Source of the DNA: Raja brachyura
Lineage: Eukaryota
Direction: 5' to 3'
DNA: 64,000 nucleotides
Assembly (NCBI GenBank): GCA_963514005.1
Contig: OY740789.1
Coordinates: forward strand, 72,912,001 to 72,976,000
Shown: one piece after another, positions 2,130 through 64,000 of the stretch
How positions within the stretch are numbered: the first letter of the stretch is position 1
Layout: every line of letters begins with the position of its first letter
The notes under the pieces: generated by a model
Database searches by the model: none
What the model was told of the DNA's origin: nothing
Seen by the model: only the letters and a program-made list of their open reading frames with translations
Translations under genes and position numbers: made by a program

Positions 2130-5100
2130 AAACAGTTTATTTTCAGGATTATGTTGCACCCTATGCTTGTAATAAATCGATAAAGGGAAACCAAATCTTT
2201 AAGAATTGGTCTGATTTGCCTGCTAGGACGAATCTCATATCTTCTAGGTGTAACAATTCAGACATGTTTGAAATCCACATTTTAAGCGTTGGTGTTGGTG
2301 CATTTTTCCAAAATTTTAATATACGTTTTTTTTGCCATTATTAAGCCATAGTTAAGGAAACTCTCTTGGAACAAAGTCAGCTCAGAGCTGGTCTCCATTG
2401 TTCCAAAGATAATCAATTCTGCATTACGGTTCATTTCTGTTTTAAATACGTTTGTAAAAATTTTGAAAATTTTATTCCAAAACCTTTGAAGTTTTATGCA
2501 AAAGACAAAAGAGTGTGCTGTAGCTGCATCTTGAGATAAGCATTTATCACAGATGGGTGAGACATTTGGAAATATTTTATTCAATTTAAATTTTGAGTAA
2601 TATAATATATGTAAAATTTTAAATTAAATTAAGGTATGTCTTACATTTATCGAGCATTTATTTACATATAGCAAATATTTATCCCATCTGTCTTTCGAGA
2701 TATTTATAGATAATTCTTGTTCCCAGTCTCTTCTGATTGCATCAGATGGTGGTATCTCTATGTTTAAAATAATATTATACAAATATGATATTAAATTAGT
2801 AGAATCTGCCTTTCTGTTCATAGCTTCATCAAGTATATCTGGTCAAAGTTTTATGTTCTTTTGTATGTGTTTTCAAGTAGTCACGATTTGAAGATAATTA
2901 AAGTACTGATTACTTTTCAGGTTATATTTGAGTTGTAGTTGTTGGAATGATAAAAGATTTCCCATTTCATACATTTCTCCAAAGGTTTTAATTCCTATTC
3001 TTTCCCAGTGTGTAAACGTTGTATCGATAATAGATGGTTTAAACTATGGATTATTAACAATAGGAGAGAGATGCTATAGATTTCTTAATTTGAAAGTTAA
3101 TTTTATTTGTTTCCACATTCATATTGTACAATGAATAATTGGATTTTTCTTGTATATTATGTTATCAGTTTTATCGGCGAGAGAAGGATCGCTCCTATAT
3201 TAAAAGGAGAGCAGTCCTCTCTCTCCATTCCTATCCAATCTACCTGTTGGGCAGAATTGTCCAACAAGTAAATTATATATTTAATATTTGTTGCCCAGTG
3301 ATAGTTCAGAAAGTTGAGTAGTGTCAATCCACCAAATTCCTTGGGTTTACACAGGTGTCTGCTTTGAATTCTATGGGGCTTATAGTCCCATATGAAATTT
3401 GTGATATCAGAGTAAAGTTAAAAAAAAAAAATGTAGGTAAATATATTGGTACTGATTGAAATAAATATAACATTTGTGGCAGAAAAATCATTTTTATGGC
3501 ATTTATTCTGCCTATTAAAGACATCGGTGGTGTTTTCCAAAATTTAATCAAACATTTAATTTAGTAAGGGCATATAGTTTGCATTGAATAAAGATTTATA
3601 TTTTCTAGTAAATTGAATTCCCAGATATTTAAATTTTTCTGTAGCAATTCTAAAGGGGAATTTTAAAAGGTGTGTCGGTTCTTGAGGTTTTATTGTCATA
3701 ATTCACTTTTATTCCAATTTATTCTATATCCTGAAAAGGATCCAAATTCCTCTACTAAATTTAATTTATTTGGTATGCTGATTTGCGATTTTGTAATATA
3801 TAATAATACGTCATCTGCATATAGTGATATTTTATCATTTGAATGTTTTGTATTATAATCATGGATGTTCAGATGCATTCTTATACTTTCTGCTAAGGGT
3901 TCTATCACAAGAGCAAATAGCCGGGGTGATAATGCATATCCCTGTCTATTGTCCCATGATAGTTGAAATTTCGAAGAGAGTATATTATTAGTCAGTATTC
4001 TAGCATTCGACTTGTCAAATAATAATTTTACCCATAAGATAAAATTCTTTCCCATTTGACATTTTTGCAATACTTTGAAGAGATATTCCCATTCCACCTG
4101 GTCAAATGCTTTTTCTGCATCCACTGAAATAATTGATAAGTCTTCTTCTTCTTCTTCTTCTTCAGTATTATGTGAATACATTATATTAAACAGACGTCTC
4201 AGATTGTTGAATGAGTATCTCTTAGGTATAAACCCCGTTAATAGATTCTTAATTTATTAACATATTTGCTCAATCTTCTTGCTAGAATTTTCGCTAGAAT
4301 TTTCTGATCTGTGCTTAACAATGCAATGGCTCTATATGAACTGGGATCTTCTAGATCTTTATCATTTTTTCGGTATGAGTGTAATAGTTGATTCCACTAG
4401 TGTTTCTGGCAGTATTTGTTCTTTAAAAGCGTATGTGTACATTTTTTGTAGATGTGGTGAAATTGTTTCGTAGAATCTTTTATAAAATTCATTATTAAAT
4501 CCATCTGGTCCTGGCGTTTTACCATTCTTCAGTGAGTTTATTGTCTCTTCTATTTCCTTAATTGAGATCTGAGCTCCTAATTCCTCTTGTTCCAGCAGAT
4601 TAAGTTTTGGGAGGTTACAATTATCCAAGAAATTTGTAAGTTTAATGTTATCTGTTGATGTTTTTGATATGTATAATTTTTTATAAATTTGAGGAAATCT
4701 TTTATTAACGTCTTTAGGTATTGTTAACAATTCGCCTTTATCTGATTTAATTTTTGAAATCGTATGGTCCTTTTCGCGATTTTTCAGTTGACGTGCCAAG
4801 AGTTTATGTGGTTTATCACCGAATTCAAAGTTTTCCTGTTTTGTAATTTGAAATAGTCTTATCTCTTGTGGATAAGATTCTGCTTAATTTAAATTTCAAT
4901 ATTATTATTTTATTATGTTTGTCTATGGTTGGTTCTTTAGCGTTATCTACATCTAGTTGTCTAATTTGTTCCTCTAACTGCAATTGTTCTTCCTTATTTT
5001 TTTTATTTTGAAATGCTTGATGTGAAATTATGGATATTCGAATAAATGCCTTAAAAGATTCCCATAATAAAGATGGTGAAATGCCTGGTGTGTCGTTAGT

Positions 5101-5947
5101 CTCAAAAAAAAAATTCCATCTGTTGTTTTAGATATATACCACCTTGTGGATCGTTTAAAATTTGGGGATTAAACCTCAAAAACGATTTTTTATTGGGAAT
5201 TCCTAATTTTAAGGAGAAGGTTAACGGAGAGTTATCAGAAATAATACTATTATGATACTTAGGATTCAATGTATGAGGAATTAATTTTGTATCAACTAAA
5301 AAATAATCGATACGTGAATAAGTTTTATGTACCATTGAGTGAAAAGAGAATTCCCTTCCAACTGGATTAGCGATCCTCCATACATCTGTTATATTTGTAT
5401 TTTAATTATATGTATTTAGGAGTTCACTAGCTTTTGATTTTATATTAAGCCTCTTTTGTTGTGCAGATTTATCGAGGTATGGATTTAAAACGCAATTGAA
5501 ATCTCCCCCAATTATCACATTTTGATAATTAAACTCTGCAATTAATTTCAGTATTTTGTTAAAAAATTGAGGATTGTCAAAATTAGGCGCATATATATTT
5601 ACCAAAGTAAGTGGTGTAGCATTGATTTCTCCCGTAACTATAAGATATCTCCCCTCTTTATCTGTTATGATATTCTTTGATTTAAATGGTATACCTTTAC
5701 AAATGATAATTGCCGTGCCTCTAGATTTAGAAATATATGAAGAGTAATATGTTTGGGCAATCCAATTTGCCTTGAGTCTGGTCTGAGCTTGAAGTTTCAG
5801 GTGTGCTTCTTGTAGGAAAAGTATGTCTGTATTGAGTGATTTTAATTGTGCAAAAATCTTACTCCTTTTAATTGGCTCATTGGCACCCCTTATATTCCAG
5901 CTACAAAACGTGATTCCTCCTAGTTTCTTTTGTTTATCGTCTTGCAT
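2130..5947 (-). pseudogene. L1 ORF2 (APE endonuclease + reverse transcriptase), disrupted by frameshifts/stops
   Basis: Motifs SWNIRG, LFLQEAH, NIYAPN, IIGGDFN, YSRIDYF, KTPGPDGF, SVDAEKAFDQVEW, RQGYALSP, LYADD, CDKC spread over several ORF fragments. Confidence 0.92.
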
Positions 5948-6629
5948 TATGAATTACTTTAATACCTTTAAGTCATACGGTGCGACACAATACCTCAGGC
6001 CCCTAGGTGTTGGGTGGGCACTGGCGGTTGCCAAGTTCTGTTTGTATATCCCCTTCAAACTTGAAAAAAAACAGAGAGGTGTAAAGTGATATAAAAATAA
6101 AAATGATGATATTATAGCATCTAAAAATAAGGATACTATTAAAAAAATAACCACCTAGTGGTGGTAGCTAAATTCTTAACTTCCATAGATGTTAATTTAC
6201 ATTAAGCTCCGCTCCCTTGACCAAATATTGTAAAAAGTAAGAAAGGCCAGGTCAAAACTGAGTTATAGATAAAAAGTAAAAAGCCTCCTCCCCCCGGAGG
6301 AGTTAATCATTATTACATTATATCACTGCATATTTTGTTTCTATTGCTCTCGCTAAGCTAATTCCATTACTTGATTACTTATATGTTAGTATTAGATTAT
6401 TAACATTTTTTAATTAATCAGTTTTTATTTTAAAGTCCCTATATATTAGTTTTCCATGCTCCATGGCTCTGGTTTGTTTTGTCCTTCATTCCAAGTGAAA
6501 CATAAAGTTCGGCCTTGAATTAACATTCCAGAGAGATAAAATGTCTAGCCATTGCCTCGTATATAATTTCGCCATCTTAACGAGAGCATTGTCTTTTATT
6601 AAAAAGTCATATCTTCAGCGTTTCCCGTC

Positions 6630-7664
6630 TGCCGATATTATACAGGACCAGCTCCTGAAATTTCTTGTGCATATTTGAATGCCTCTTCTGGATCAATGAA
6701 GGCACGTTCCAGATTGTTATAAGTGATCCTCATTTTTGCAGGGCACATTATGCCATATCTTGCGTTTTCGATTCCTTTCAGAATCTGTCGTCTTTGTGAA
6801 CATGTCCCGTTTTTCAGCTATTTCTGCAGGGTAATCTCTGAAGAATCTCAGATTGTCCTCTTCAAACGTCAGATTCTTTCCATAAGGAATTTGTTTCATA
6901 ATATCTTCCAGAGCAGAAATGTCATGAAATTTCACTATGAACTGTCTTGGAGGGGCTCCTGGCTTTGTTTGAACTCTTTGAACCCGATGAGCTACATCTA
7001 TTTTCGGTTTGTCAGACAGTTTAAATACTTGTTTAAGTAAGTTGCCAGCGAACTCCCAAGGGTTCTTTCCAGCTTCCCTTCCCTCTCTCACTCCAACTAT
7101 TCTTAAATTCTGCTTTCTTGGACGTGCTTCCAAATCCAGGCATTTGTTAGTCATTTTGGCCAGTTGCCCTGAGACACAATCTTGCTCCTTCCTCAGTCTT
7201 TTCATCTCTTCAGACATATCAATCATCGCAGTTTCCATATCTTCCATAACCGTGGAGAATGCTTTAGTGTTCTTGAGAACAGAATCAAACTTCTTGTTGC
7301 AATCTTTTTCAACCTGTTTGATTTCTATATTTAAGCCATCCTCAATTTCTTCAATACGTTTCCTTAGAGTAGCTATTTCCTCAATGACTTTCTCATTACA
7401 TTTAATTTTTTTAGACAGATTTTTCTCCAGTGCAGAATTTCCATCTTGTATCATTTTAGCAAAGTCACTCATTAATGAGGTTGTTACCAACTGCTCCAGT
7501 TGCTCCATCTGTTTCTCCTTTGAAGCCATTACAGTAGGTATTCTTTGAGCCTCAGACTCTTCTTTGGAACTTTCTGTTGCTGTTTGCAGGGTTTTATCCA
7601 GCTCTATAGTCCGTTGTTTCACTTGAGATCTTGTAACAGCTCTGTTGGAATTCTTCTTGTGCAT
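6630..7664 (-). pseudogene. L1 ORF1 (coiled-coil + RRM/CTD, Transposase_22-like), frameshifted near the C-terminus
   Basis: 315-aa ORF 6717-7664 with coiled-coil, DLEARPRKQNLRIVGVREG, AHR, PRQFIVKF and FRDY motifs typical of L1 ORF1p. Confidence 0.88.
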
Positions 7665-22688: not shown

Positions 22689-22694
22689 TTTATT
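22689..22694 (-). terminator. Candidate polyadenylation signal of the MGA-like gene
   Basis: AATAAA on the minus strand ~170 bp beyond the inferred ancestral stop codon (22865-22867). Confidence 0.35.
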
Positions 22695-22864
22695 GCAAGG
22701 CCATATGAGCCCTTACCACAGGAGGTTCTAATCAGGTCTGTTAGCAGTATGAATTGCCTGAAAAAATAGTACTCTCTCGACAAAAGAAAACACAAAAAAC
22801 GTAAGAAAAGTTTTGGCTACACATTTTAAAAACCATATTGTGAAATACAGTATTTACACATCTT

Positions 22865-23791
22865 CTAATAGACACTTATAGCAACTTCTGGACTCTCCCA
22901 GCTGGTTTGTTGTGGGGAGGAGATCCGAGCCAAAGCAGGCATAGGCTTGCTACTCTCTGGAGAATTCTCAGATTCTGACTCAGTCTGTTCTTATGACTCA
23001 CCTTTCCCAGATCCCCTAAAGGGCCTGTCCCACTTTCATGATCTAATTCACAACCTTTTTTACTCGTGGACATTTTTCATCAGGCTAGAAAAAAACGCCG
23101 CAAACTACTTGATGCCATGTGTACCTATGACTAGCATCACGACCTGCTACAACCTCGTGACGAATCTGAGTCAAGGGCAAACTCGGCTGAGATTGTGAAT
23201 TAGATTGTGAAAGTGGGACAGGCCCTTAACTAAACCAAGCGGTGTCAGCTTAGGCATGGGTCTCCAGAGCAGATCCAAAGAACTTGGGATCTCTGTATTT
23301 GTTGAAAAGGAGGTTGTCTTCATATGGATCAGTGGGGGAGGAGAAACATTTACTGAACTATTGGAACCACTCGCAGAGTTCCCCTCAAAGTCCAGTGTGC
23401 AATTATCTAACTTACTCTATGAATCCACAGGCATCTCATCGCCAAGCAATTGTTCAACATTCAAGTCTTCTCTTTCCAGCTGCAACACCAGGGGACTGGT
23501 GGAGCCACCACTCTCCCTCCCTCCCTCTTGCTTCAGTACTGTTGCATTGTCAACAGCATCGATGTCCATCAGACTTACTGGTCCATGCTGTCCCCTTGGT
23601 TTCCACTGCCAATAAAGCCCAATGTGTGGTGGTCTGACATTGATCAGAGAAATGCTGATTTAAAAACGCAAGCTTGTTTAAAGGTGAAGTGAATGGCTCA
23701 TATCTCTGTGTCCACCATGTCACCAGTTGCTGAGCCATTTGCGTTCAACAATGGTTCGAGGAGCTGAGATGCTGATAGTTCTGCATCTCTG
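22865..23791 (-). pseudogene. mga: Decayed ancestral C-terminal coding region of the MGA-like last exon (now presumably 3' UTR)
   Basis: MGA C-terminal motifs in different frames: EPFTSPLNKLAFLNQHF, STSPLVLQLERED, VSPPPLIHMKT, LWRPMPKLTPLGL, ESSKPMPALARI. In-frame TAG 23417-23419, TAA 22991-22993, MITE at 23020-23226. Confidence 0.8.
23020..23226. mobile_element. PIF/Harbinger-type MITE, 207 bp, TAA TSD
   Basis: TIRs AGGGCCTGTCCCACTTT / AAAGTGGGACAGGCCCT flanked by TAA (23017-23019, 23227-23229). Confidence 0.88.
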
Positions 23792-24354
23792 TCACTGCCC
23801 ACCAGCTTTGTCCTTACTGCACGCCTGCAATCGGTCACTCATAACCTGCAGTTCCAATTTATCTCCAAGTATTATCTCAGTCTCAGACGTCGACTTCCCT
23901 GGGACCAAATCTTGATTCCAAGAATGCCTTGCACAAGATACTGCGGTTCCATCAGGCAAACCAGACAAATCCAGCTCTTTGGGTAAATCAGCGTTCTTGT
24001 CAGCATTCATTGAACGAGAATCTGCAGTCTGTTGGGTATGTTGCTGGGCACATTCGGAATCTGTGGCCTCTGATGAAACAAGAAATGACATGGCCTCACT
24101 TTCATCAGGTGCAGTAAACTGCCCAGATGACGGCGAGTTGCTCTTTATAATGGGCAAACTTGGTTTATTACTGGTCATAGGACTGAGCTGTTCTTGTGAT
24201 GTATACTTCCTTCCTTTCATGCTGAAATCACGTGACTGTGGAACCAGTGCACAAGAATCATTCGCTTCTTCTAGATTTAGCAATGGGGATTCGCCAGTTG
24301 CCAATGACGTTACATTCACTATTCTCGGCATCATGAATGAAGACACTTCATCAT
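23792..24354 (-). CDS. mga: MGA-like, last coding exon (ends at premature TGA)
   Basis: Acceptor ..CCCTAG|AT, phase 1. DDEVSSFMMPRIVNVTSLAT matches the MGA motif FMMPRIVNVTSLAT. Stop TGA at 23792-23794. Confidence 0.88.
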
Positions 24355-26246: not shown

Positions 26247-26438
26247 CAACTGAAACAGTGGCCACGTTCAATCTGGCATCGTTGCCTTGACACGCATCAG
26301 CCAAACTGAAGCTTGAGGCCTCCATACCAGGTCTAGTGGTCAACTGTGTAGACGTTGTCAGTGTAGAACTGAGTGATCCCGCAATAGTAAAGTTATTTAC
26401 CTGAAGTGGCACTGGCAAGCCTTGCAGTTGTATAGTAA
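26247..26438 (-). CDS. mga: MGA-like exon (192 bp, phase 1-1)
   Basis: Polypyrimidine tract + GGGCAG acceptor, GTAAGC donor. Open frame VTIQLQGLPVPLQV...; phase-compatible but skippable. Confidence 0.65.
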
Positions 26439-26558
26439 CTGCCCAAAGGGATAGGGAGAGAGTGAGACAAAGGGAGAAGTGAGGGGAGGGGGGGGGGAGG
26501 GGAAGCCTTTCACAAATGTGGAGCACAATGAAGATCCAGCTGAAACTCATAGCAATAC

Positions 26559-26735
26559 CTGCAATACTTGCTCCAGTAACACCATCTCCCTTGGACTGGT
26601 TTTCACTTAGGAGTCCCTCAGCAGTGAAGAATGGAGTTTGGCCGGAAATAAGAGGACCCTTTAAAGTCGGAACCTGACCCTGTGGTGTCATCAGCAAACT
26701 TCCAGTTGTCAGCGGGATGGATGAGGTTGAAGACT
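26559..26735 (-). CDS. mga: MGA-like exon (177 bp, phase 1-1)
   Basis: TTTTGACAG acceptor, GTATTG donor. SLLMTPQGQVPTLKGPLISG matches MGA NLVMTPQGQLLTLKGPLFSG. Confidence 0.88.
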
Positions 26736-33299: not shown

Positions 33300-33581
33300 G
33301 GGGAGTTGATGAATGTTTCATGGTGAGAATAAGAGGTTTTGCACGACTAGCCTCAGACATTAAGTCCTGTCCACTACAAAGCATAGTGACATTGGGTGGA
33401 TTCTGGATTTGAAAATCCATGGCCACCTTCTGTAGAGAGTGCATAGATGATATAGATGCTGTATTCCCACTGACAGAATGCTGTTCACTTGCATCATCTC
33501 CTTCCTGCATGGACGTTCTCTTCTCAACATCTAGTGCGCAGTTATATTCCAGATTTTTCAAAATAACTTCCACAGTCTGCC
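33300..33581 (-). CDS. mga: MGA-like exon (282 bp, phase 1-1), post-zipper
   Basis: TTTGTAG acceptor, GTATGT donor. GQTVEVILKNLEY matches MGA GKTEEVVLKKLEY; RAKPLIL matches RGKPLIL. Confidence 0.88.
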
Positions 33582-42982: not shown

Positions 42983-43094
42983 CTGTCAATAGAGAGACTT
43001 TTTGAATAAGAGAATCCCTTATGCCAGTCTGGATACTTTTCCCAGCTGATAAACAATCAGAATAATTCTGCAGATTCTGGATTTCTGCAAATGC
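42983..43094 (-). CDS. mga: MGA-like exon (112 bp), helix 2 / leucine zipper
   Basis: CTTATAG acceptor, GTAAGG donor. AFAEIQNLQNYSDCLSAGKSIQTGIRDSLIQKVSLLT vs MGA AFSEIQGLTDQADKLIGQKNLLTRKRNILIRKVSSLS. Confidence 0.92.
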
Positions 43095-43173: not shown

Positions 43174-43359
43174 CTGCTTCAGGATAAAGTATTTTGAAGC
43201 TTTTCCCTCCCCGCCATTGGCCAAAGTTCTCTTCAACCTTTCAAAGAGGTCTCGCAAATTAGAACGCCTCCGCCGCTCATTTACTGTGCGCGTGGTCTGA
43301 CACACTACCAGAGCATCCAGCTGAGCCTTTGCTTCCTTACTGAGATTAGCAATGTGTTT
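43174..43359 (-). CDS. mga: MGA-like exon (186 bp), basic region / helix 1 / loop of the bHLH
   Basis: CTTTAG acceptor, GTTTGT donor. QTTRTVNERRRRSNLRDLFERLKRTL...KASKYFILKQ vs MGA RRTHTANERRRRGEMRDLFEKLKITL...KVSKSLIL. Confidence 0.93.
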
Positions 43360-44277: not shown

Positions 44278-44350
44278 TGGTTTGGATTTGATGTCGCCCT
44301 CCTCCACCTCATCCGATTTATTTGTAAGGCATGGGTTGTGGAAATGGCAT
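44278..44350 (-). CDS. mga: MGA-like small exon (73 bp, phase 2-0)
   Basis: TTTTTCCTTCCAG acceptor, GTAAGT donor. Exactly bridges the phase-2 end of the upstream exon and the phase-0 start of the bHLH exon. Confidence 0.78.
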
Positions 44351-48348: not shown

Positions 48349-48464
48349 TTTGATTTGCTTGTAAGACGAGAGGCATAAGCAATAAGACGAGCAATGTTGT
48401 TTTTCTCAGAGATTTCCTCCACATTCTCAGTGTCCATTGCCTCTTCACTGGAGGTTGAGTCCAA
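48349..48464 (-). CDS. mga: MGA-like exon (116 bp, phase 0-2)
   Basis: TTTTCACAG acceptor, GTATTG donor. MDTENVEEISEKNNIARL matches MGA VDIETVEELSEEINVAHL. Confidence 0.85.
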
Positions 48465-49913: not shown

Positions 49914-51007
49914 CGTTCTCTCAACGTCAATTTCCTCTGCATCACTTTGACTGTCAGCATCCTCCAGATCACTCTGAGAGTCAGTATCTTTATCAGAGTC
50001 CATAAAGTTTTCATATCGCAGTAATCTTTGATGAAAGTCTAGTTCCTCATTCTCTGGATTTTTTAGCATATCCTTATCAATCACTTCATGGTTAGATCTG
50101 GAAGAATCTTTAGCAACAGCAGTTCCTTTTCCAGTTCTTGTGGAATTATCTAGTACAGAATTTTCATTTTCTTCTTCCACAATATGTTTTGCACTAGTGT
50201 ATGAATGGTCAACCAATTCTGCTGGAGTATGGTGTTCTAATGCATTTTGATGGCCCATAGAATCATCCTCCAACTCATTGTCTACCTCACTACCTGAAGG
50301 AGTGGAAGGAAATGCATCAGTCGCCTGTTTAACTTCTGGCGATGGATCAGCATTTACATGGTCCTCATCTGGTACACCCTGAGACACCGGTGTCTCAATA
50401 AGCTCAGAATCAGCAACATGAATCTCCTCTAGCCCAGGTTCAATCAACTTTTCTTCTGATTTGTTATTCTGGTTGGCAGTCTTCTCAGAGCCTGCTTTTT
50501 CAAATGACTGTGAACCAGATGACTGATCCACAAGCTGCAATGACTGTCCAGTAGTTATGATGGCATTTGAAACTTGTTGAGGCAGCTGCAGTAGAGCAAA
50601 TCCCATTGGTTGAAGGGGAACTAGATGCCATGCACTGAGAGTTTGACCAACACCATTAGCAGCAACAAACGGAGGCTGTGAAGTAGTTTTAACAGGTACC
50701 TCTGACGCTACTGCAGAAATGGGTTGAGGAGTAAGGGCTTGCTTCAAAGCAACACCGGCTGGTTTTAGAACACGGGTTGAACGTGGCCTTCCTCGTTGTG
50801 GGATTTTCCCTTTAGGACATAGAGTGACATTGCTGGGAGATGAAGCCACAGAACAAGATTTTATTGGGGTAGGCAGAACAATAGGCGTCGAACATGGCTT
50901 TCTTCTTTTTGGTATTATCTGTTTAGGACATAGATTGACATTGCTAGGAGATGAAGCCACCGAACAAGATTTTATTGGGGTAGGCAGACAATTTCCACTC
51001 CCTGAGC
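49914..51007 (-). CDS. mga: MGA-like large exon (1094 bp, phase 1-0)
   Basis: TTCTTAG acceptor, GTGAGT donor. Open frame GSGSGNCLP...PMGFALLQLP...DHSY...EEIDVERT; phase matches neighbouring exons. Confidence 0.88.
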
Positions 51008-63835: not shown

Positions 63836-64000
63836 CTGGATTCGGTTCAGCAAGAGTGACCATTTGGTGGAGATTTGGTCGACTCACTGGACCAGGATTT
63901 GGTAGAGGCAGAAATTGGATAATCTGGCCATTTGGATGTTGGAAGAGTTTTCCATCTGGAAATCTGAGGGGCTGCAGTATAATCTTCTGTCCAGATGTGT
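63836..64000 (-). CDS. mga: MGA-like exon (5'-partial at window edge)
   Basis: TSGQKIILQPLRFPDGKLFQHPNGQIIQFLPL..NP matches MGA LQPVRSPSGMNLFRHPNGQIVQLLPL..RNPG. GTGAGT donor, phase 1. Confidence 0.88.

Follow-up and report, generated by a model that had tools for sequence, protein, structure and literature searches.

An exon-shuffled, transcribed MGA duplicate with a fossil C-terminus in the skate Raja brachyura

The MGA locus and the composition of the window gene

The window analysed here is a stretch of 64,000 nt from Raja brachyura (contig OY740789.1, positions 72,912,001 to 72,976,000), and the locus around it was read over C9:72.64-73.71 Mb. An intact MGA gene (copy A) was found at C9:72.69-72.79 Mb. 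It encodes 3,110 aa in 24 coding exons with T-box, MGA_dom and bHLH, and its exon order is that of Stegostoma MGA. The gene in the window lies 240 kb from the intact gene and belongs to a group of at least five partial duplicates at this locus. An earlier interpretation made from the letters of the window only (the sequence-only reading) had left the existence of a second, intact MGA to a synteny check; copy A is such a gene.

The window gene consists of module B (exons 3-8 and 11b-24), preceded by module C, which carries a copied promoter and exons 3, 11b, part of 15, 16 and 17. Exons 3, 11b, 15, 16 and 17 thus occur twice in the gene, which extends about 140 kb past the window to the copied promoter at about C9:73.118 Mb. 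A 79-nt exon kept in all copies and RefSeq models was taken as exon 11b; a 40-nt candidate was dropped because of its GG donor in the duplicates. Exons 9-11 (690 nt) of the window copy are gone in an 11.9-kb deletion that preserved the phase, and the idea that they were hidden in an assembly gap was ruled out, since the deletion junction lies 13 kb away from that gap. DUF4801/MGA_dom (PF16059) gave one match genome-wide, in the intact MGA, so all the duplicates lack it. Single-exon T-box matches were found only at 72.790 Mb (intact gene), at 73.256 Mb (copy D) and on C40, and there was none between exon 3 of the window copy and its copied promoter. The earlier picture of a near-complete MGA with only its tail clipped is therefore not correct: the T-box and DUF4801 exons are also lost, and exons have been shuffled in front.

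Aligned introns of copies A and B differed at 9.7% of 26,292 sites. Exons 4-21 of the window copy were 89-98% identical to intact MGA, most of them below 95%, with introns at 90%. Exons 22-24 (window 26247-26735 and 23795-24354) were 95-98% identical, closer than most upstream exons, and gene conversion from intact MGA at this 3' end is possible.

The features in the window are as follows.

63836..64000, minus strand: 3' part of coding exon 15, which starts at 64135
49914..51007, minus strand: exon 16, open; +111, +27 and -129 nt relative to intact MGA, all in frame
48349..48464, minus strand: exon 17; conserved VDIETVEE changed to MDTENVEE
44278..44350, minus strand: exon 18; -12 nt, in frame
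43174..43359, minus strand: exon 19, with the basic region, helix 1 and loop of the bHLH; 31.3 bits for Pfam HLH (cut-off 20.7)
43290-43288, minus strand: basic-region His5 to Arg; Glu9 and Arg13 retained
42983..43094, minus strand: exon 20, helix 2 and start of the zipper
33300..33581, minus strand: exon 21, end of the zipper; -12 nt, in frame
26559..26735, minus strand: exon 22, 98% identical to intact MGA
26247..26438, minus strand: exon 23, absent from the RefSeq orthologue models but in contigs of all four runs examined there
23792..24354, minus strand: coding part of the last exon, ending DKAGGQ-TGA
24299..24322, minus strand: FAM motif IVNVTSLA, unchanged in three orthologues; in mouse MGA this motif binds ATF7IP
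23792..23795, minus strand: 2-bp deletion making the TGA
22880..23791, minus strand: fossil of 253 C-terminal codons, now 3' UTR
23020-23226, no strand given: MITE of 207 bp with 38-nt inverted arms (92%)
23017-23019 and 23227-23229: 3-bp TAA/TTA target duplication flanking the MITE
22875..22879, minus strand: junction of a deletion of about 640 bp
22689..22694, minus strand: AATAAA, candidate polyadenylation signal; contig cover drops near 22726-22744
3696-7664, minus strand: decayed element that we take from its motifs to be of LINE type (endonuclease, reverse transcriptase and ORF1-like frames)

Upstream of the last exon, the eight exons that lie wholly inside the window and the one truncated by its edge all keep AG/GT and phase, which agreed with the earlier description of open, phase-consistent upstream exons. 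Pfam gave no match in the last exon or exon 16, and a PDB search with exon 19 returned weak MyoD matches only (best bHLH E 0.12).

Other MGA-derived sequences

Copy D (C9:73,185,000-73,276,000) is only half a gene: it contains a promoter, an open T-box exon and exons 3-8, and no bHLH. Its exons 3-6 are open, a stop lies in the skippable exon 7, conserved T-box residues are altered (TAYQN to TADQN), and its tandem exon-3 start is present in exon-bounded contigs. Copy F+E (C9:73,298,000-73,445,000) is an inverted sister gene with exons 16-24 intact, including the last exon. Its exon 3 has lost 1 bp, the first of its two exons 16 contains a stop, and its exon 12 is inverted; the model of its Leucoraja orthologue (XP_055496980.1; 2,465 aa) is open. 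RefSeq models of the sister copies begin with a basic stretch, rich in Arg and Glu, that has no relation to MGA; it is encoded close to copy F (C9:73,304,000-73,318,000) and is possibly derived from a transposon. Two more MGA-derived modules lie at C9:73,470,000-73,550,000 and from 73,645,000 (about 73.65 Mb) on. Matched exons in the modules beyond 73.506 Mb were free of stops, and the cluster may extend past 73.706 Mb.

In module C, the 5' part of exon 15 (C9:73,065,894-73,066,073) comes from non-MGA DNA, an exonised insertion that is in frame both here and in Leucoraja. The third single-exon T-box (C40:18,256,107-18,256,655) is, from the T-box match, a candidate for the ancient MGA ohnologue of cartilaginous fish; it lies on another chromosome and is not part of this cluster. 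Within intact MGA, one intron (C9:72,709,000-72,718,900) holds a simple-repeat array of about 10 kb with spurious 3,200-codon frames. In geckos there are 'MGA-like' proteins 1,480-1,956 aa long; most of them gave no bHLH or MGA_dom match, and they possibly form an independent set of partial MGA copies.

Premature stop and fossil C-terminus

On the minus strand, the last exon begins at 24354 and is open down to a TGA at 23794-23792. It matched MGA proteins with a best E of 1.5e-10. A search of the same genome showed that the contig carries this exon twice more, with 92% and 90% identity to the window copy; both of these copies are open for 440 codons and lack the MITE. Relative to these two copies, the window exon shows -2, -2, -19, -19, a TAG, a 210-bp insertion and a TAA. 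The first 2-bp deletion, at 23795/23794, creates the TGA, so the early end of the exon noticed from the sequence was confirmed; the later small deletions are located at 23708/23707 (-2), 23645/23644 (-19) and 23588/23587 (-19). The loss beyond the TGA amounts to 253 codons, in place of the roughly 300 estimated earlier.

The conserved C-terminal motifs of MGA lie beyond this stop. All five motifs that the sequence-only reading had placed in shifted frames are present there, but only EPFTSPLNKLAFLNQ is in a shifted frame. SPLVLQLE, SPPPLIHMKT, LWRPMPKLTPLGL and KPMPALA are in the original frame again because the four small deletions total -42. The in-frame stops reported within the tail, TAG at 23419-23417 and TAA at 22993-22991, were both read in the sequence, as was a TAG at 22867-22865. 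It had been proposed that removing the MITE restores a frame ending at this last TAG. This was incorrect on two counts: the TAA at 22991 still breaks the frame, and the TAG is not the ancestral stop. Homology to the intact copy ends at 22879 and restarts about 640 bp further along the UTR of the intact copy, so that the junction at 22879/22875 marks the removal of about 640 bp containing the native stop and the first part of the 3' UTR. Since the native stop was deleted, the TAG at 22867-22865 is coincidental and comes from UTR sequence.

PIF/Harbinger elements make a 3-bp TWA target duplication. The inserted element has terminal inverted repeats, a 3-bp target duplication and many copies, and 39 other full-length copies were listed at 84-88% identity (40 of 2,749 candidates scored). 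It is Harbinger-like by these features only, in agreement with the earlier assignment to a Harbinger MITE.

The lesions past the stop comprise three further deletions, two stops, the MITE and the large deletion, where 3.4-4 frameshifts and 1.2-1.4 stops are expected under neutrality; the lesion count there matches neutrality.

Orthologues in other skates

Two RefSeq proteins, XP_055496970.1 of Leucoraja erinacea (2,655 aa) and XP_032882529.1 of Amblyraja radiata (LOC116976744; 2,757 aa), were identified as orthologues of the window gene, with 86.5% and 87.8% identity to it, respectively. Both are automatic annotations whose models omit exons 6 and 23. Both start with MNKSSIN at the predicted Met, follow the same shuffled exon order, and contain no T-box, including at their start. 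Pfam HLH scored above its cut-off in window exon 19 and in both orthologues. A frame of about 2,700-2,900 codons has been kept across three skate lineages. In a tree of exons 16-21 (15 rows), the three B proteins formed a clade (100/99) and, with modest support (89/88), all duplicates were placed later than the split from Rhinoraja. Leucoraja also has a further MGA copy ending at exon 21, besides its F+E orthologue.

The Amblyraja protein stops at the same DKAGGQ, and the Leucoraja protein 98 residues earlier. From this comparison, the TGA stop would thus predate the split of the window genome from Leucoraja and Amblyraja, as the proposed old truncation had implied. The same evidence bears on an assembly error or false duplication. 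A gap in one intron outside the window could be taken in its favour, but the shared stop in Amblyraja, the presence of the MITE junction and a 19-bp deletion in contigs of three organisms, and the distance of the exon 9-11 junction from the gap make such an error so improbable that it can practically be dismissed, in accord with the earlier view.

Retention of the reading frame

Counted from exon 3, module B has an open frame of 2,149 codons; modules C and B together predict a protein of 2,935 aa. The combined frame starts at a Met in exon 3 of module C, and the lesions of that exon all lie upstream of the Met. Both ends of the gene thus carry fossil coding sequence, before the start Met and after the stop. 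In module B the final third of exon 3 is missing, and the exon is spliced from a new donor that preserves the phase.

Among 16 indels upstream of the stop, 14 were multiples of three, and the remaining two (-2 and -1) cancel each other within a 30-codon extension absent from the orthologue models. Multiples of three made up 68 of 341 indels in introns, and by the same ratio the 14 in-frame indels imply many frameshifting ones. Neutral simulation at 0.043 changes per site, the synonymous rate of the branch, predicted about 10 stops and about 30 frameshifts, although the intron indel rate used may overstate the exon rate. None of 2,000 neutral runs was free of stops at d=0.043, and two of 2,000 were at d=0.03. 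The 2,149 codons contain no uncompensated disabling lesion, where about 40 are expected. We concluded that the window gene is very probably a maintained protein-coding gene.

Transcription of the window gene

Contig cover was examined in 5 of 21 runs, four for the last-exon region and four for exon 3. The runs have not been recorded as RNA; that X1, X4 and X8 are RNA was deduced from their exon-bounded cover and from loose ends that run from exon to exon. X1 may be the source of the window itself and would then not be independent. In X1, X4 and X8, contigs with 0-4 differences from B covered exon 3 (4534 to 5288 of L046) and left its flanks uncovered; in the DNA-like run X14, contigs covered the flanks of exon 3 and the rearranged junction. 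Loose ends of the contigs matched exon 4 at its start and exon 17 at its end. The junction of exon 17 to exon 3 in X1 matched the sister copy exactly, so these contigs show the junction types and not those of B itself. At the last exon, contigs ran across the MITE junction in X1, X4 and X8 with 0, 3 and 7 differences, respectively.

These results indicated that the window gene is transcribed and spliced; tissue and expression level are not given by contigs. The lack of the TAG at 23419 in the contigs was at one point read as the sign of a recent stop. This idea was dropped, because copies that are nearly identical become merged in contigs, from which only presence can be read, and the lack of window-type contigs in X16 is uninformative for the same reason.

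Amino-acid constraint and conserved motifs

Pairwise omega was 0.83 (0.68-1.06). On the B branch it was 1.02-1.35 depending on the method (43 synonymous and 153 non-synonymous changes) and 1.26-1.35 after correction for kappa; part of this work used the 40-nt exon 11b candidate, which has the same phase as the 79-nt exon. Residues conserved in amniotes were not spared, with 42 of 292 changed compared with 272 of 1,784 others (p=0.79). Between the B orthologues, elasmobranch-conserved sites changed as often as variable ones (111/828 vs 67/469, p=0.67), whereas canonical MGA spared them (38/828 vs 47/469, p=0.00025). The B-type orthologues differed about twice as much as canonical MGA (86.9-88.0% vs 93.0% identity over 1,822 columns). 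Judged from these comparisons, there is almost no general amino-acid constraint on the window gene. The view of a still-functional, divergent copy therefore stood in part: the frame test is strong and indicates selection on the frame, but omega upstream of the stop is about 1. The alternative under which the upstream exons are neutral and unexpressed was likewise half right, since omega is about 1 there but exon-bounded spliced contigs carry alleles of the gene. As omega is about 1, the case for function is built on the retained frame, on transcription and on two motifs that have not changed, and not on dN/dS.

These two motifs are the FAM block, in which 0 of 27 sites changed in the clade against a background of 21% (binomial P 0.0016), and the loop with helix 2, with 0 of 19 sites changed (binomial P 0.011 against the same background). 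Both were chosen after the sequences had been inspected, and in a shuffle test long stretches without change were no more common than expected (P 0.27 and 0.44). The near-identity of exons 22-24 to intact MGA means that gene conversion could explain the FAM identity. The zipper (16/43) and the basic region with helix 1 (10/27) changed more than the background, and these changes, as read from the sequence, may have broken MAX or DNA binding. His5 is replaced by Arg, with Glu9 and Arg13 kept, in all three orthologues; according to PMC8431614, His5 is frequent but not invariant in group B (MAX-network) bHLH-Zip proteins. Structure prediction of the FAM peptide with the ATF7IP-type FNIII domain of this genome scored 0.36 against 0.03 for the best control, with a partner pLDDT of 54-55 and runs agreeing in at least 92% of contacts. 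The support is weak. In a calibration that peptides fall outside, 51 of 78 solved complexes and 2 of 108 mismatches attained this mark; at scores of 0.60 or less it was attained by just 5 of the 78 complexes and by all four passing mismatches.

An expressed pseudogene that owes its open frame to chance, or to gene conversion by intact MGA, would be consistent with the omega and with the conversion signs in exons 22-24. We consider it improbable, since exons 4-21 are mostly below 95% identity to intact MGA, near the intron value, and have in-frame indels of their own, no neutral run at the branch rate was stop-free, and the orthologues are open too. The gene resembles a pseudogene in its neutral amino-acid evolution (omega 1.0-1.35), unlike one in having no spread of disabling lesions.

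A more serious alternative, possible though not likely, is that the gene has no job of its own: as a transcribed by-product of duplication, it would be subject to selection that removes only harmful early stops and frameshifts. The unspared conserved residues, the omega, the repeated loss of parts across the cluster and the different truncation points of the orthologues all fit this explanation. However, transcripts with early stops are normally cleared by NMD and harmless, the start Met, exon order and FAM motif have been kept in three lineages, and the lesions are confined to the parts before the start Met and after the stop.

Recurrent positive selection, by which the copies serve as decoys or retargeting factors in germline or transposon conflict, could also give an omega near 1 as an average of adaptive and conserved sites. 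The kappa-corrected omega, the number of rearranged copies (at least five), the doubled divergence of the orthologues, and the changes above background in the basic region and zipper but not in the HLH core and FAM motif point in this direction. The excess of omega over 1 was not significant (at kappa 2.2 about 51 synonymous changes are expected, and 43 were seen), and we regard this explanation as unlikely.

Proposed function

Canonical MGA is the direct parent of the window gene (84.6% identity in the 1,822 columns that both have, with splice sites in common). The two have in common the bHLH-Zip, with a diverged zipper here, and the FAM motif IVNVTSLA. In their basic region, group B (MAX-network) bHLH-Zip proteins have Glu9, Arg13 and, in most cases, His5; they pair with MAX and recognise CACGTG. 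Unlike canonical MGA, the window gene lacks the T-box, the DUF4801/MGA_dom exons and the last 253 residues, and has duplicated front exons, Arg for His5 and about twice the rate of change.

A stop in the last exon escapes NMD. The premature stop may have been tolerated owing to this position and to its place downstream of the FAM motif; the tail would then have become 3' UTR and decayed neutrally since.

MGA is described as the PRC1.6 scaffold in PMC7821913. In mammals, the region around DUF4801 binds L3MBTL2 (PMC8266391), IVNVTSLAA binds ATF7IP and recruits SETDB1 (PMC12303078), and truncated MGA can be dominant negative (PMC8102552). As the HLH core and FAM motif are kept and both truncation points in the clade lie past FAM, we infer that the protein binds MAX and ATF7IP and stands apart from PRC1.6. 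The protein is likely made, and it likely dimerises with MAX and binds ATF7IP-SETDB1. Without a T-box, and without the DUF4801 region through which MGA is linked to L3MBTL2, it would be uncoupled from PRC1.6, and could either compete with full-length MGA for MAX and ATF7IP or take H3K9 methylation elsewhere. The change of His5 to Arg would alter DNA reading, and the rest of the chain would be mostly unconstrained spacer. We hold it to be an even proposition that this transcribed, exon-shuffled duplicate acts as such an adaptor or competitor.

Two known forms can be compared with it. The mouse germ-cell splice variant of Mga (PMC8102552) is a shortened MGA that is dominant negative on PRC1.6. 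It is a splice form with T-box and without bHLH-Zip, whereas the window gene is a separate gene with the opposite domains; copy D (T-box, no bHLH) is nearer to this variant than the window gene is. The MGA-deltaDUF mutant (PMC8266391) lacks, like the window gene, the region needed for L3MBTL2 binding, but it is an engineered human/mouse mutant with the T-box and C-terminus that are both missing here.

Among the 15 shark and non-rajid ray clusters listed, MGA appears only in the three-domain form. The skate-specific exon-shuffled MGA cluster has been annotated automatically by RefSeq, and searches of the open-access literature showed no description of skate MGA duplicates, though gene tables in the skate genome papers could list them. 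The cluster provides natural domain deletions of MGA, always without the L3MBTL2-binding region, and its copies offer tests of what the T-box, bHLH-Zip, FAM and C-terminal motifs of MGA each do. The window gene keeps a frame of about 2,900 codons across lineages with almost no amino-acid constraint, and screens by dN/dS would call it a pseudogene. A broader and rather doubtful reading is that skate MGA has split into a megabase-sized, domain-partitioned family with T-box-only and bHLH-Zip/FAM forms, none with DUF4801, which would be positively selected dominant-negative or retargeting regulators of germline PRC1.6 and SETDB1 silencing. If this were true, the domain-partitioned skate family would be a gene-level version of the meiotic Mga splice variant of the mouse.
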